A stretch of 14,489 nucleotides of DNA from Candidatus Jordarchaeales archaeon (GTDB lineage Archaea > Asgardarchaeota > Jordiarchaeia > Jordiarchaeales > Freyrarchaeaceae), in contig JAWCFL010000022.1 of NCBI GenBank assembly GCA_038858525.1, positions 16,585-31,073 of the forward strand. The letters are read 5' to 3'. The notes below the pieces were generated by a model. It searched no databases and was not told where the DNA came from. It saw only the letters and a list, made by a program, of their open reading frames with translations. Every line of letters begins with the position of its first letter. Position 1 is the stretch's first letter. A program made the position numbers and the translations under genes. Below are positions 882 to 9,480 of the stretch, one piece after another.

Positions 882-1346
882 TTAGAAGGCCCCCAGCATT
901 CCTTTTTCCTCCGGTCTGGAGCCGAAGAGGAACCTGCCGAAGAGTATGCCGAGGTAAAGCCAAACAGGGTACAGAGCGAAAAGGATCATGGCTAACCCTA
1001 AGCTTACAGGGTCTGTTATGAACACTCCGAGAAGACTTGCAGGTAAGTCGATAGGGTTGGGTGCTGTTATCTGGAATACTCCGCTGTTAATCATGAAGTC
1101 ACGTCCCATGAAAGAGAAGACCGGCAGGGGTAGCGACCAGACGAACTTCATCATCATCCAGTACGGTGGGAAATATATGTTGTTCACGTAGAGCGGTATG
1201 GCTATGGAGTAGAAGATCGCTATAGTTATTATCGAGAATAGGAGCGTGAGAGTATTCCTCAGGTGGTTAAGCTTTCTCCGCTTCACCAGCCACGAAATAA
1301 CCATACCTATTCCCAGAAGCAGGAAGACGTCAAGTATGAAGCTCAT
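882..1346 (-). CDS. Hypothetical integral membrane protein (154 aa, about 3 TM segments)
   Basis: Strong RBS AAGGAGGTGG overlapping the upstream stop. Hydrophobic segments near the N-terminus, around residues 33-53 and around residues 105-140. Starts 12 nt after the epimerase stop. Confidence 0.85.
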   Translation of the reverse strand: MSFILDVFLLLGIGMVISWLVKRRKLNHLRNTLTLLFSIITIAIFYSIAIPLYVNNIYFPPYWMMMKFVWSLPLPVFSFMGRDFMINSGVFQITAPNPIDLPASLLGVFITDPVSLGLAMILFALYPVWLYLGILFGRFLFGSRPEEKGMLGAF

Positions 1347-2579: not shown

Positions 2580-3308
2580 ATGAGTAGGCGCCGTTACCGT
2601 CGCCAAGGTGGCGGCTCAGCGGCTATAGCATGCGCGTCCATACTGTTCTTCATCATATCCGCATTTGTGTTTCAATCAATGATCGCCAATTTAAGTGATT
2701 ACTCACTGCTCGCATATCAAAGGGTTTATACTGTATACTGCTCACTTTCTAACGCGACACGCGACCCCACAGAGAGCTTATCTGATTTTTCCGCCTTCTT
2801 CAATGGGGTTAGAGCGCTGGCGAGCTACGTTAACGGAGCTCAGCTCTCCGCACCATACTTAATACTGGACTTCTTTGGAAGCACGCTTTTCCCTAGGCTC
2901 ATGGCGTGCCTTCTCCTCCTCTCAGCAGCCATAGTGCTCATGACATTAGCTTTAAGAAACCCATACATGGCGCTGGCAGCAGTAACAGTCGCTCTCGTAG
3001 CAATATACTTCGCCTACTCGATCTGGAATATCGCATCAATACTTTCGCTGGAAACCCGAATAGTGCAACTCATATGTTTTAACGTTGACTCCCAACTCAC
3101 AAAGCTCTACGGGCCTGACTGGAGCTTCTTCCTCAGAAATATTCACGGGATATCTTTGTCCCCAAGGGATCTCTTTAATCCCAGCGTGTTCAGCATGTTT
3201 TATTTAAGCTTCGCTGAGTCGTACCGTGCATGGATACTGGAGATTGGCGCAGCGTGCATGGCAGCATCAGCCCTAATAGCTCTAGCAGCGGCAAAAGCAG
3301 CAAGGTAA
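2580..3308 (+). CDS. Hypothetical multi-pass membrane protein (242 aa)
   Basis: RBS GGTGGTGG. Arg-rich N-terminus followed by about 4 hydrophobic helices. No family recognised. Confidence 0.8.
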   Translation: MSRRRYRRQGGGSAAIACASILFFIISAFVFQSMIANLSDYSLLAYQRVYTVYCSLSNATRDPTESLSDFSAFFNGVRALASYVNGAQLSAPYLILDFFGSTLFPRLMACLLLLSAAIVLMTLALRNPYMALAAVTVALVAIYFAYSIWNIASILSLETRIVQLICFNVDSQLTKLYGPDWSFFLRNIHGISLSPRDLFNPSVFSMFYLSFAESYRAWILEIGAACMAASALIALAAAKAAR

Positions 3309-4139
3309 CCCGCTACCTTTCATTTATTAAGTGATTTGCACTTTCACACTTTCCCGATTCTTCAGAATCCCTTTATGTTGCTTTCATCTTCATAGTGAAG
3401 ATAGATGTTTGATTTCTGGCTTTCAAGTCGATAATGTCGAAGAACAATTTAAAAGAGCACCGGAACAGTTGTCGGAGAATTGCAAGTAGCCTAAACGCTT
3501 GCACTTATACGAGAACGTTCGGGGAAGACATCCTAAGCTTTTTTCATCAGACAATAGAGGCTCTTCTCGAAAGCTTATAAATGACTCCTATGAACCCCCA
3601 AGAACACATTAAGCCTGTTGGTGTTCCACAACACTCCGGGACGACAAGTGCTCCGATAATTGTTTGCTTCACAAGCAACAACTTAGAAGTCTCTCGAGGC
3701 GAGAAACCTCCTCACAGCAATCAAAAAGAGGGGCTTGTGGAGAACGCGACGTAAAGTGTCTTCTTCGCCGGAATAGACATTCATGAGAAAAGAGGATCAG
3801 CATCCGTGACCCCCGCTGGCCAAGCAACTGACCAACAAGCAGCGGGTCCTAATTAGTTTCCTAAGCTGACCAGAACATTTAGAACACTAATAGTGAAGAT
3901 TATATACGAGAAAATGTTTGAACCCGAGGGTGGTTGGCTTAAAAAGAGGAAAAGAGTATACTTGCTCAGCAAGCCCCTCATCGGGAAGAGGCGGGAGCAG
4001 ACAGGGAGCCTCATTGGTTCGGATGAGAACAACCTGAAGTTCCGGCTGACTTAGCTGAAAGCGTAAGAAGTGCCTTCTTTTTCACGTTAGCGTAGGGTTG
4101 GAGAGGGAAAAAGAAAAGTATACCTAAAATAAGGGAAGC

Positions 4140-4154
4140 GAAAAAGGTTATAGA
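4140..4154 (+). promoter_or_regulatory. Putative BRE + TATA for the SIS-HAD operon
   Basis: GAAAAAGG followed by TTATAGA, about 75 nt above TTG 4230. Confidence 0.35.
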
Positions 4155-4229
4155 GCTTAAAGACGTAGTATAATGGGGCCTTGAGGTCCTCCATAGATAC
4201 TTCTACTTCACCGTGATGGAGCTGTCAGC

Positions 4230-5276
4230 TTGCCCGGTCGCCAAGCATACCTGATACTGAAGGAGATACTGGAGGAAGAGGAGGCTGTTAAATTAACGTT
4301 GGAGGTTGCCTCCAGGTGCCTGGAGGAGGTGGCGCCTTGTCTGCATTCTGCCAACTTCACGTATTTTACTGGGAGCGGAACAAGTTACCATGCGTCCATT
4401 GTTGGTCAGTATGCCTTGAGCCGGCTTGCTTCCTCTTTCTCATCCTCTGTGCCTGCATCCGAGTTCAGCCAGTGGGCATCCGTTAAGGGCCCTGAAACTC
4501 TTGTCGTAGCTATCTCCCGGTCAGGTGAAACATCGGATACGCTGGAGGCAGCGGAATACGCGAGGAGTCATGGTGCTAAGGTGTTGGCGCTCACAAACAC
4601 TCCTGGAAGCAGTCTTGCAAGTGTCTCGCACTTTATCCTTTTAACGGGGGCTGGAGAGGAGAGGTCTGGCGTGGCAACGAAAACATACGTCTCCCAGCTT
4701 GTGGCATTGTGCCTTTTTTCGGCTTTCATAGGCGAAATTAAAGGACGTGGCGAGGCTGTGAGACTTAAATCCATCCTCAACGAGCTACCTGGGAAGGTGG
4801 GGGAAACGGTTAGGTTGTCGGGGGAGCAGGCTAGGCGGCTTGCCGAGGAACACTCTGAAGCCGAGTTCTTCTTCGTTCTCGGTTCAGGGCCAAACTACGC
4901 CACGGCGCTTGAAGCAGCCCTCAAGCTTAAAGAAGTTGCAGGGGTATTCGCGGAGGGCTTCTCCACCAGGGAATTCCTCCATGGGCCAATGCATCTGGTC
5001 GACGAGAAAACCACAGTAATAATACTTCTTCCTCCTCAAGAGCAAGCTGACACATGTGTAGACTTGGCTAGCCGTCTCGAAAAGCTCGGCTCTCGCGTGA
5101 TCACGGTAGCTGACAGGGAGGTTGGCTCCGAAAACCAGCTACTTGCCCCTATTAACAACCCAATTCTCTCTCCCATCTTCTTCATAATACCCTTACAGCT
5201 CCTCTCGTGTTACCTCTCATTGGCGAGAGAGGGAAAGGGAGAGTTGCGGAGCGAGGTGGAGACGAGTGGTTATTAA
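4230..5276 (+). CDS. Double-SIS-domain sugar-phosphate protein, GlmS isomerase-domain-like, with no glutaminase domain and no GlmS C-tail
   Basis: Motifs GSGTSYHA, ISRSGETSDT, ALTNTPGSSLA, ATKTY, GSGPNYATALEAALKLKE and EFLHGP. TTG start preceded by GGAG. Confidence 0.9.
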   Translation: MPGRQAYLILKEILEEEEAVKLTLEVASRCLEEVAPCLHSANFTYFTGSGTSYHASIVGQYALSRLASSFSSSVPASEFSQWASVKGPETLVVAISRSGETSDTLEAAEYARSHGAKVLALTNTPGSSLASVSHFILLTGAGEERSGVATKTYVSQLVALCLFSAFIGEIKGRGEAVRLKSILNELPGKVGETVRLSGEQARRLAEEHSEAEFFFVLGSGPNYATALEAALKLKEVAGVFAEGFSTREFLHGPMHLVDEKTTVIILLPPQEQADTCVDLASRLEKLGSRVITVADREVGSENQLLAPINNPILSPIFFIIPLQLLSCYLSLAREGKGELRSEVETSGY

Positions 5277-5958
5277 GTGTATTTTGTTCGGCATAGATGA
5301 CACCCTCTACGACGCATCCCTCCAGAAATATCTTGCAAGAATGAACGCTGTAAGGGCGATGATAGAAGCTGGACTGCCAGTAGACCCCGAAACCGCGTTT
5401 AACACGTTGAAAGCGATCGTGGCGGAGTACGGGGAAGATTACGACAGGCATTTCGACAGGATGCTTGAACGCCTCGGACTAAGGGTTAGCCCGAGGATCA
5501 TAGCTGCGGCAGTTGCAGCGTATCACGACACAAAGTTCGCATACCTGCGGCCGCATCCGGAAACAGTTCCAACACTGCTAAAACTTAGAGATCATGGCTA
5601 CAAGATAGGCGTTGCCTCAGCAGGAAACCCCGTCAAGCAATGGGAAAAGCTCATACGCCTAGGGTTACAACACTTGTTCCACCACGTGGTCATAGCTAAG
5701 GAAGTCGGGTACGAAACGCTCGAATGGCATGTATTCGAGAAAGCCCTTAAAGCGCTAAATTCGACACCAAAGGAATCCTTATTCGTAGGATGCTCACTTT
5801 CAGAGGAGCTGGTGCACGCGAAGGCGGCAGGACTATTAACTGTCAGAGTGAAACGTGGATCACACCGGTCAGAAACACCAAAAACTCCAGGGGAAACTCC
5901 AGACTACGAGATCTCAAACTTAACAGAAATATTCAAGATAATAGAAGAAATGAAATAG
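5266..5958 (+). CDS. HAD-superfamily hydrolase homolog (TIGR02253 / MJ1437-like), predicted catalytically inactive
   Basis: Family-typical segments DDTLY, ARMNAVRAMIEAGLP, AYHDTKFAYLRP and KQWEKLIRLGL are present. Motif I reads FGIDDT and motif IV reads VGCSLSEE. GTG start with RBS GAGGTGG (5253-5259) and an 11-nt overlap with the SIS gene. Confidence 0.9.
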   Translation: MVIKCILFGIDDTLYDASLQKYLARMNAVRAMIEAGLPVDPETAFNTLKAIVAEYGEDYDRHFDRMLERLGLRVSPRIIAAAVAAYHDTKFAYLRPHPETVPTLLKLRDHGYKIGVASAGNPVKQWEKLIRLGLQHLFHHVVIAKEVGYETLEWHVFEKALKALNSTPKESLFVGCSLSEELVHAKAAGLLTVRVKRGSHRSETPKTPGETPDYEISNLTEIFKIIEEMK

Positions 5959-6137: not shown

Positions 6138-7106
6138 ATGTTCATGCGTACGAGTGGTGTTCTTCTGGTGACGATGTGTGCCGCGCTCTATGCCCTCACA
6201 ACAGCCATGTCGAAGCTGTTCTTTAGCGTTTACGAGTTCAGCATCTTAACTTACTCTTTCATAGCGGCCGCGCCCGGGGTGACTATTCTACCCTTTAAAG
6301 TAGCTGATGGAAGCATAAAGCGAATCAAGCCTTTCATTAAGTGGGCGCTGGCTCCCGCGTTCCTTTTCGGCTCAGCTCGCATCCTCTTCTACTACGCCGT
6401 CAATTACGGCTCCCCATCTCTTCCCGCCGTCGTGAACTCGTTCTCTCCTATAATGGTGGCTGTTCTCAGCTTTTTCGTGTTCGCCGAAAGACTGAATAGG
6501 CACCAGATAGCAGGCATGGTCGTCGCTATACTTGGAATGCTTATCTTCCATGCCTCAAACTTCCAGACGAACACGGGAAACCTGCTGGCTGAAGCCGCCG
6601 CCGTCCTTTCCATGCTTGGCTTTTCAGTCAATAACGTGGCCACAAAGAAGGCGCTGGAAAACGTTGACGAAGCAACACTCACAACTCTGATATTCACTAT
6701 CAGTAGCGCAGTCCTGGCTCCCGTGGCGATATCCGAGCTTGCAGCAAAAATTTCCTTCCCCTTCATGGGGAGAGCCCCCCTCACCCCGATAATCCTAGCC
6801 GGAATATTCCTCTTCGCCTTCCTAACCGTTATTCTCCCAACGTATCTCCTCATAGATGGCCTTAACTACGTCTCCCCAACGACAGCCGGCCTCCTCCTTC
6901 TAAGTCAGCCAATCTTCACAATGATCTTTGCATCAGCCCTAAGAGTAGAGTACGTGGCTCCACTACAAGTCATAGGAGCCATCATAACGATACTCGGAAT
7001 AGCCATCTTCCGAATAAAAGCTCCGGAAAAGGAGGAACCCTCCCTAAAGGAGCTACGAAAGGAAAAGGAAAAACCTTCACCAAAGAACTCCAGCAAACAA
7101 CAATAA
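6138..7106 (+). CDS. EamA/DMT family transporter (about 10 TM segments)
   Basis: Duplicated EamA halves with signatures SPIMVAVLSFFVFAERL...QIAG and VSPTTAGLLLLSQPIFTMIFA...QVIGAIITILG. Start moved from TTG 6015 to ATG 6138 (after GGGGTAGGT); ATG 6144 is also possible. Confidence 0.9.
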   Translation: MFMRTSGVLLVTMCAALYALTTAMSKLFFSVYEFSILTYSFIAAAPGVTILPFKVADGSIKRIKPFIKWALAPAFLFGSARILFYYAVNYGSPSLPAVVNSFSPIMVAVLSFFVFAERLNRHQIAGMVVAILGMLIFHASNFQTNTGNLLAEAAAVLSMLGFSVNNVATKKALENVDEATLTTLIFTISSAVLAPVAISELAAKISFPFMGRAPLTPIILAGIFLFAFLTVILPTYLLIDGLNYVSPTTAGLLLLSQPIFTMIFASALRVEYVAPLQVIGAIITILGIAIFRIKAPEKEEPSLKELRKEKEKPSPKNSSKQQ

Positions 7107-8607: not shown

Positions 8608-9138
8608 CTACGGAATTCTGAATATTATTTCCTCGTATCCTCCTATTATGTCCCTTTCCCTCGCCCATAACGAAAGTATGTTAGCGTGCACCTCGTACTC
8701 CATTAGTGTCCTAACATCAACTATCTCGGCCCCCTCCGGGAAAACCCATATCGCTTCACAGTCGTAATCGAGCTCTTCCTCTTCGCTCCAAGTAACATAG
8801 GTGTTAAGCCCGGAGACCAGGTTTCCCCTAAAGGTAATGACCCAAGTTACGAATGGCAGTTCTTCCCTCCCCCTGAACCCCAAGTCTATGAAGACCACTT
8901 CCGGGTGGACAGGCTCCCCGTTAACCTCATTTTTCTCCTCATCCAAGAACCCCTGCATATTGTCCCAAAGTCTGTTCATCTCCCTAGCATACTCGTCGGG
9001 GTCAGCCTCCAGGGAGGCATAGTACCCTTCAGGGTCATAGTAGTCGTAAATCAAGTACTGGCAGAACTCACCGGACTCCGACACGTTAAAATAAGTATGG
9101 GCGTGAAGAGGAACAACTTCTTCATCAGGCGCACTCAA
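8608..9138 (-). CDS. Acidic hypothetical protein (176 aa)
   Basis: Open frame with protein-like composition. Start reassigned from GTG 9204 to TTG 9138, which lies 8 nt after GGAGG. Confidence 0.8.
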   Translation of the reverse strand: MSAPDEEVVPLHAHTYFNVSESGEFCQYLIYDYYDPEGYYASLEADPDEYAREMNRLWDNMQGFLDEEKNEVNGEPVHPEVVFIDLGFRGREELPFVTWVITFRGNLVSGLNTYVTWSEEEELDYDCEAIWVFPEGAEIVDVRTLMEYEVHANILSLWARERDIIGGYEEIIFRIP

Positions 9139-9480
9139 TTCATATTCCTCCAACAAAGAGAAGCCCCAAGCCGCCTCTATAAACTTTATTAGCCTACCAT
9201 GCACCTCAACGGCTATACCTCTTTTTTCGAGCCTTTTTGCCCACTTAAACCCGGTCAGTTTTTCAGGCTTTAACTAAGAGTCTGTCACCAAAAAGCAGTT
9301 TATCGGTCACCCTCATATTTGCAGTGCGGCTTTGTAAGACATAAATGTTTTTCAGTGTTTCGTTTAATGAAGGGGAAAAGTTAAAGTTAAAATTGGAGGA
9401 AGATAAAGGATGTTAGGCATTATTAAGGACGCTTCCGCGTGTTTTTGAAGGGTCTTGTCTCGCGGAGAGGGGGAAAATGT

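Follow-up and report, generated by a model that had tools for sequence, protein, structure and literature searches.

A GlmS-like SIS protein and a HAD-fold pseudo-phosphatase form a conserved, translationally coupled gene pair in archaea

We analysed a window of 14,489 nt (G000:C22:16585-31073) from a Candidatus Jordarchaeales genome (G000; assembly of 2.09 Mb, 92.7% complete), whose nearest public proteins and contigs are labelled Candidatus Freyarchaeota or Jordarchaeia, that is, Asgard archaea. Two overlapping forward-strand genes lie within it (Table 1), the first encoding a stand-alone relative of the isomerase domain of GlmS (hereafter SIS) and the second a HAD-fold protein (hereafter HAD) that has lost the catalytic residues of a phosphatase. 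We provide evidence that this pair is an old and selectively maintained unit, and suggest that the inactive HAD probably serves the SIS protein as a partner. Comparisons draw on five genomes of the window's family (G000-G004, of which G000 is the window's own) and on a scan of 185,579 public species genomes, which returned 80 loci.

Table 1. Features in and around the SIS-HAD pair (positions are those of the window)
Feature	Position	Strand	Description
SIS gene	4230..5276	+	TTG start, 348 aa; stand-alone GlmS isomerase-domain paralogue with two SIS domains, C-terminal tail lost
HAD gene	5266..5958	+	GTG start, 230 aa; HAD-fold pseudo-phosphatase of the TIGR02253 / PH1655 type
Shine-Dalgarno-like GGAG of SIS	4218..4221	+	8 nt 5' of the TTG; read from sequence
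Shine-Dalgarno-like ribosome-binding site of HAD, GAGGTGG	5253..5259	+	6 nt 5' of the GTG, within the coding end of SIS
Out-of-frame replacement SIS tail, LAREGKGELRSEVETSGY	5220..5276	+	From a 16-nt deletion; nucleotide alignment of the junction in G000-G004
Decayed PaaK-like adenylate-forming pseudogene	3416..4161	+	tblastn with the intact G002 and G004 orthologues; fills the 920-nt gap at 3309-4229
EamA/DMT transporter	6138..7106	+	Pfam EamA 5.8e-29; neighbour, outside the conserved module

The two reading frames overlap by 11 nt (5266-5276), and the GAGGTGG of HAD lies inside the 3' end of the SIS gene, both as described in an initial annotation of this DNA. That annotation also called the pair translationally coupled, and the pair proves to be a real and deeply conserved unit: in all 35 public-genome loci where a GlmS-like SIS gene abuts HAD, the HAD start falls between -11 and +7 nt of the SIS stop, with a spacing of +1 in eleven and an ATGA overlap in nine. 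The GGAG-N8-TTG layout ahead of SIS is common to G001, G002, G003 and G004 as well. Directly 5' of the HAD start, most of the 35 loci carry the K-V-V codons of the SIS tail (AAGGTGGTGA or a close variant), which can be read as the Shine-Dalgarno sequence of HAD, so that one sequence appears to have both coding and ribosome-binding roles. As the ribosome-binding site of HAD would thus be formed by the last SIS codons, the two proteins are probably made together.

HAD matches the TIGR02253 model above its cut-off (183.9 against 169.75 bits) and PH1655 (PDB 2HOQ) with an E value of 1.7e-55, and it is changed at three of the four catalytic motifs. The DLDDT of motif I in PH1655 has become GIDDT, with Gly9 in place of the Asp nucleophile; GVKKPHP of motif III has become GYETLEW, losing the Lys; and GDRLYSD of motif IV, the Mg-binding acidic pair, has become GCSLSEE, losing both Asp. 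Ser118 of motif II (VASAG) is retained, as it is in 87% of the HADs that adjoin a SIS gene (the linked clade). An AlphaFold2 model built with 43 homologues has a predicted local distance difference test score (pLDDT) of 94.7, and its best Foldseek match is again 2HOQ (template modelling (TM) score 0.92, E 2.6e-22, 43% identity in the structural alignment). The fold, a Rossmann-like core with a C1 cap, is thus predicted to be intact, and the phosphoryl-transfer machinery is gone. HAD is a member of TIGR02253 (CTE7) by sequence and not a functional equivalent of it. With the catalytic residues lost, phosphoryl transfer by HAD is not possible, and its reported inactivation is borne out: motifs I, III and IV are destroyed in a gene that remains under purifying selection, a true pseudo-phosphatase.

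The same losses extend across the linked clade. The Lys of motif III and the first Asp of motif IV are absent from 40 of 40 tabulated linked HADs, and one further linked HAD from the phylum survey is also dead. About half of the clade has Gly, Ser, Ala or Asn at the nucleophile position, the rest having Asp; the +2 position holds Asp, Asn, Gly or Glu, and the replacements in motif IV are Ser, Ala, Cys, Asn, Lys or Val. Such replacements, differing from subclade to subclade at the old catalytic positions, are the pattern expected of an abandoned active site. Unlinked archaeal relatives (from Altiarchaeota, Hydrothermarchaeota, Methanopyri and two other Asgard families) retain DxD, Lys and GDxxxxD, with GN in a few. 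Residues conserved specifically in the linked clade are Asp12, Gln20, Glu34, Asp40, Glu42, Glu68, His139, Arg194 and Glu215. Sugar-phosphate sensing by HAD is possible, an idea weakened because the linked clade has also lost Asn58 and Lys90, two cap residues that never vary in the canonical relatives compared.

Six distant HAD-CofD fusions in Brocadiales / Planctomycetota (L122-L127) form a separate exception to the linkage pattern. Their HAD is about 30% identical to that of the window, keeps DxD but not the Lys of motif III, and forms the N-terminal part of a fusion with CofD (2-phospho-L-lactate transferase), a hint that this HAD subfamily is connected with F420 biosynthesis in anammox bacteria.

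The SIS protein matches Pfam SIS (1.5e-37) and aligns with the NCBIfam glmS model over positions 251-590 only, scoring 224 bits against a cut-off of 418. Its own genome carries a full-length GlmS (C2:73045-74853, 715 bits), the isomerase half of which is about 40% identical to it. The N-terminal class II glutaminase domain with Cys1 is absent from SIS, and the upstream DNA holds no remnant of it. A decayed GlmS glutaminase in the 920-nt gap was considered and rejected, given the 251-590 match and the identity of the gap as a PaaK-like pseudogene.

For the isomerase site of GlmS, the catalytic residues are given as Glu488, His504 and Lys603 (PMC9272926), and for the SIS-fold deaminase NagB-II as Ser, Glu and His, with roles as set out in PMC10201695. 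The window SIS retains the phosphate loop, GTS (residue 50), SRSGET (96), LKLKE at 231 (Lys485 and Glu488 equivalents) and LHGP at 250 (His504 equivalent). It also has equivalents of the residues of NagB-II and GlmD, namely the phosphate-binding Ser, the enolising Glu and the ring-opening His. One of the three residues named for GlmS is changed: the protein ends in GKGELRSEVETSGY in place of the GLNPDxPxKLxKVV tail with the Lys603 equivalent.

The junction with HAD records how this tail was lost. In G004, the SIS junction reads GLNPDNPKKLAKVVR followed by the stop; relative to it, 16 nt are deleted in G000 and G001, 26 nt in G002, and 18 nt in G003, which also has an early stop. The old tail codons of the window SIS are now out of frame and extend 11 nt into HAD. 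This loss of the tail through a frameshifting deletion is confined to the window's genus, where SIS also carries Gln348 changed to Arg and, in G002 in addition, Lys487 and Gly505 each changed to Glu. Linked SIS proteins outside the genus retain GSGTSYHA, SQSGES, ATK, LKLKE, LHGP and the tail GLNPDxPxKLxKVV(R/K), and thereby every catalytic residue of the GlmS isomerase; apart from the genus, the exception is a frameshifted copy, L104, which was set aside. In that copy (L104:4895-6697, Bathyarchaeota metagenome-assembled genome CAVZKL010000018) the SIS tail and the HAD gene are both frameshifted, and it is either a decaying cassette copy or an assembly error.

The initial annotation held that each gene is altered at its catalytic parts and proposed testing whether the two inactivations occur together, a lack of correlation between genomes being one of its refuting conditions. 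The statement is right for HAD and partly right for SIS, which has lost the tail Lys603 and kept Glu488 and His504. The two inactivations do not occur together, as HAD is dead in all linked copies tabulated and SIS, with L104 set aside, has lost a GlmS catalytic residue only in the window's genus. By that condition, the pair cannot in general be described as 'a pair of pseudoenzymes': the death of HAD is ancestral to the cassette, and the loss of the SIS tail is recent and restricted to one genus.

A survey of gene order, which the initial annotation had recommended, finds the pair conserved far beyond the window's family. SIS and HAD are adjacent in G000-G004, G021, G031 and G036. By lineage, adjacency is seen in all five family genomes, three Atabeyarchaeia and one further Asgard family, and the 35 abutting pairs among the 80 public loci are mostly from Bathyarchaeia, with others from Jordarchaeia, Atabeyarchaeia and Marsarchaeota. 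Linked loci thus cover Bathyarchaeia, three Asgard families and Marsarchaeota, and the cassette is represented by more than 100 sequence clusters at 90% identity. In a quick IQ-TREE analysis, the linked HADs form one clade (38 of 38 rows; Shimodaira-Hasegawa-like approximate likelihood ratio test (SH-aLRT) support 100). The HAD-linked SIS proteins likewise form one group (SH-aLRT 94), separate both from the isomerase domains of GlmS and from ten further SIS paralogues that stand alone. Of those ten, none has a HAD beside it on the same strand; one, L133, has a canonical HAD as its neighbour on the other strand. Sub-groups in the two trees are for the most part the same, as would be expected of a pair inherited as a unit.

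Within the genus, at a synonymous divergence (dS) of about 0.8, the ratio of nonsynonymous to synonymous substitution (dN/dS) is 0.14-0.15 for SIS and 0.06-0.10 for HAD; between Bathyarchaeia pairs it is 0.05-0.14 and 0.03-0.08, respectively. These ratios indicate that both genes are functional and under purifying selection, the dead HAD usually being under the tighter constraint. That the loss of its tail relaxed selection on SIS was considered and rejected, the genus values lying only at the upper edge of the intact-tail range.

Upstream of the pair, the initial annotation noted a 920-nt gap. The gap is present, but it holds the remains of a gene and no regulatory spacer. In G002 and G004, SIS is directly preceded, on its own strand, by an intact open reading frame (ORF) of 445-488 aa; the G004 copy matches the AMP-binding family PF00501 and scores 250 bits, below the cut-off, against PaaK. 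In tblastn searches, window positions 3416-4024 correspond to residues 53-276 of these orthologues (E 3e-15), with in-frame stops and gaps, and positions 3982-4161 to residues 404-466 in a different frame (E 2e-5), about 127 codons having been deleted. The copy in G001 is frameshifted and that in G003 is cut by a TnpB-like (Cas12f1-like TNB) ORF, so that, of the four species of the genus that were compared, three, including the window's, no longer have a working copy. From these alignments, the gap is the dead first gene of a family-specific three-gene operon. The interval 3309-4229 contains neither a tRNA nor an Rfam family, and none of its ORFs exceeds 65 aa. An RNA gene was accordingly rejected as an occupant of the gap, and a 27-nt block sharing 96% identity with G001 is a coding remnant of the PaaK-like C terminus.

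Downstream, the EamA/DMT gene probably starts at ATG 6138, about 180 nt beyond HAD, because orthologue alignments begin at residues 36-44 of the 6015 ORF. The proposed link between the pair and this transporter is not supported beyond the family. DMT follows HAD in G000, G003 and G004, and the G001 copy is broken; neither G002 nor any other lineage was found to have it beside the pair. Like the PaaK-like gene, it is a neighbour only in the window's family. Three further window ORFs of 154-242 aa, at 882-1346 (-), 2580-3308 (+) and 8608-9204 (-), have no Pfam match, and the first two look, by eye, like membrane proteins.

Gene context in several lineages bears on what the SIS protein may do. 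In Marsarchaeota G2 (L117:3670-5994, NEXG01000018), a single 775-aa ORF joins a NagA domain (258 bits, cut-off 226) to a SIS domain of the HAD-linked type, and the dead HAD comes next. In Atabeyarchaeia (L051), a PfkB sugar kinase and a deacetylase of the PIG-L family flank the pair, and in G036 the pair adjoins ORFs for phosphotransferase system (PTS) components EIIC (GAT type) and IIB (L015:7-916). PTS components are unusual in archaea. In the chitin pathway of Thermococcus kodakarensis, the PIG-L deacetylase TK1764 works with the GlmS-like deaminase TK1755 (PMC6579819). Taken together, these contexts point to glucosamine-6-phosphate deaminase as the probable activity.

We therefore favour, as the probable though not secure explanation, a reading in which the dead HAD is the non-catalytic partner of a GlmS-derived SIS enzyme in an ancient two-gene cassette. 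SIS descends from the isomerase half of GlmS, with no glutaminase domain, and in most lineages keeps every residue for opening and enolising a sugar-phosphate ring. Its most likely action would be that of a glucosamine-6-phosphate deaminase / ketol-isomerase, functionally analogous to GlmD and NagB-II. HAD derives from a TIGR02253/PH1655-type phosphatase whose Lys and metal-binding Asp residues disappeared when the cassette arose, with the Asp nucleophile gone as well in many lines; this agrees with the initial annotation, which had derived the pair from an isomerase-phosphatase arrangement. The most likely role of HAD would then be that of a structural or regulatory subunit bound to the SIS enzyme. 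Support for such an association is indirect, consisting of the coupling in 35 of 35 loci and the co-inheritance of the genes. In the window's genus the cassette is eroded at its edges, with the PaaK-like gene dead in three of four species and the SIS tail deleted, and both remaining genes are still under purifying selection.

Several observations weigh against this explanation. Asp12 and Ser118, at the old active site of HAD, are conserved across the linked clade, and residual ligand binding or new chemistry at that site is possible. A deaminase context is seen in three lineages only, and the neighbours in Bathyarchaeia are housekeeping genes (TBP, TrmI, beta-CASP RNase). The window SIS scores 125.5 bits on the NagB-II model (NagB_SO3506; cut-off 430) and 88.4 on GlmD (cut-off 580). 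NagA and PIG-L deacetylase matches are absent from G000 at its 92.7% completeness and its SIS lacks the Lys603 tail, so the activity in the window's own organism is uncertain. Additionally, there is no SIS-HAD fusion among proteins of 404-2000 aa, although this is a weak negative.

Among the other explanations, the strongest is that HAD is not inert but carries out a different, non-phosphotransfer catalysis before or after the SIS step in one pathway. The very strong constraint on HAD (dN/dS 0.03-0.10), the retention of Ser118 and of clade-specific polar residues (Asp12, Gln20, Glu34, Asp40, Glu42, His139, Arg194, Glu215), and an operon coupling as tight as is typical of consecutive enzymes are all in keeping with it. 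We nevertheless consider it unlikely, as the old catalytic positions vary freely among subclades and we know of no HAD-fold chemistry without the Asp nucleophile. Less likely still is that both proteins are pseudoenzymes that jointly sense sugar phosphates or act as a regulator, perhaps of the DMT transporter downstream. The changes to SIS in the genus (tail and Gln348, with Lys487 and Gly505 in G002), the dead HAD, the selection on both genes and the position of DMT in three family genomes would fit such a device. It is at odds with the complete SIS catalytic residues outside the genus, where HAD is already dead, and with the window SIS itself, which still has equivalents of Glu488 and His504, the residues named for the SIS-fold deaminase. 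Moreover, the DMT gene of G001 is broken, none was found beside the pair in G002 or the other lineages, and neither protein was found to have a DNA-binding or signalling domain.

It is also conceivable, though very unlikely in our view, that SIS is the organism's missing phosphoglucose isomerase (PGI), converting fructose-6-phosphate to glucose-6-phosphate, and not as an amino-sugar deaminase. G000, the one pair-bearing genome in which PGI content was examined, has no match to classical PGI (PF00342) or cupin PGI (PF06560) and only sub-threshold matches to archaeal PGI/phosphomannose isomerase (PMI); the Bathyarchaeia pair sits among housekeeping genes, and a weak PGI-like side activity is known for the isomerase domain of GlmS. 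Amino sugars are nevertheless indicated by the NagA fusion and by the PIG-L/PfkB context, and an equally good candidate exists in a divergent SIS paralogue of the same genome (G000:C2:95201-96250, L005), which is weakly PGI/PMI-like (42 bits), closer to those models than SIS is, and may be the missing isomerase of G000. The least credible alternative, to which we give almost no weight, is that the operon is simply decaying in the window's genus and that both ORFs are becoming pseudogenes with no present function. In its favour are the state of the PaaK-like gene (dead in G000, with a frameshift in G001 and the TnpB-like insertion in G003), the frameshift that removed the SIS tail, the broken DMT of G001 and the long branch on which the genus sits in the SIS tree. 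However, both ORFs are intact in all five family genomes, and the G000-G001 and G000-G003 comparisons, which postdate the tail deletion, give the genus dN/dS values reported above, within the range of lineages with intact tails.

The non-catalytic partner explanation can be taken further, and here we are distinctly tentative. HAD might be an obligate non-catalytic subunit of a hitherto unrecognised two-component archaeal amino-sugar deaminase in Bathyarchaeia and several Asgard lineages, taking the place of the allosteric site that bacterial NagB enzymes have built in; in the window's genus, where the SIS lid has been lost too, the complex might have become a binding or sensing device and no longer be an enzyme. 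We see this as possible but doubtful.

We could not find a description of the SIS-HAD cassette in the papers searched; none named TIGR02253 or PH1655, and nothing relevant was found on archaeal HAD pseudophosphatases or pseudoenzymes. In public annotation, HAD is named 'TIGR02253 family HAD-type hydrolase' and SIS scores as a truncated GlmS. Therefore, metabolic reconstructions of Bathyarchaeia and Asgard archaea may count a phosphatase that does not work and miss a probable amino-sugar deaminase. The cassette also offers a clean natural example of a prokaryotic pseudoenzyme, with a single origin and a stronger constraint than its active neighbour. Additionally, the tail-less genus provides a natural comparison for the contribution of the GlmS-type C-terminal tail.

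Compared with known systems, SIS resembles GlmS in its two SIS domains, its roughly 40% identity to the isomerase half of the GlmS in its own genome, its phosphate loop and its Lys485, Glu488 and His504 equivalents, and its relatives also keep the C-terminal tail with the Lys. It differs in having no glutaminase, in scoring below the glmS cut-off and in belonging to a separate clade always followed by a dead HAD, the window copy being tail-less as well. NagB-II of Shewanella and GlmD (TK1755) share with it a stand-alone, GlmS-like double-SIS architecture, the catalytic Ser, Glu and His and, in some lineages, the amino-sugar context; the window SIS nevertheless falls far under both equivalog cut-offs. 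NagB-II has its own allosteric site within the SIS protein (PMC10201695), and no HAD-fold partner of NagB-II or GlmD is reported in the literature searched. HAD, in turn, has the cap-domain motifs AR.NA, HFD, AYH.TK and K.WEKL.RL in common with PH1655 and TIGR02253 proteins. Canonical members of that family keep DxDxT, Lys-Pro and GDxxxxD and have no SIS neighbour, whereas the linked clade has lost these motifs together with Asn58 and Lys90.

Gene arrangements that pair a SIS-fold sugar-phosphate isomerase with a HAD-fold protein are known from the sugar-nucleotide pathway pairs KdsD/KdsC and GmhA/GmhB. There, the HAD works as a phosphatase and the SIS members come from different subfamilies, whereas here the HAD is dead. 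Former sugar-phosphate enzymes are also kept as regulatory or scaffolding parts of complexes, as in Tsl1/Tps3, the plant class II trehalose-6-phosphate synthases (TPS) and the SIS-based glucokinase regulatory protein. These systems are eukaryotic and of other subfamilies, with homology limited to the superfamily fold; by analogy, however, the non-catalytic HADs of trehalose-6-phosphate synthase and the glucokinase regulatory protein may come nearest to the SIS-HAD pair in mode of working.

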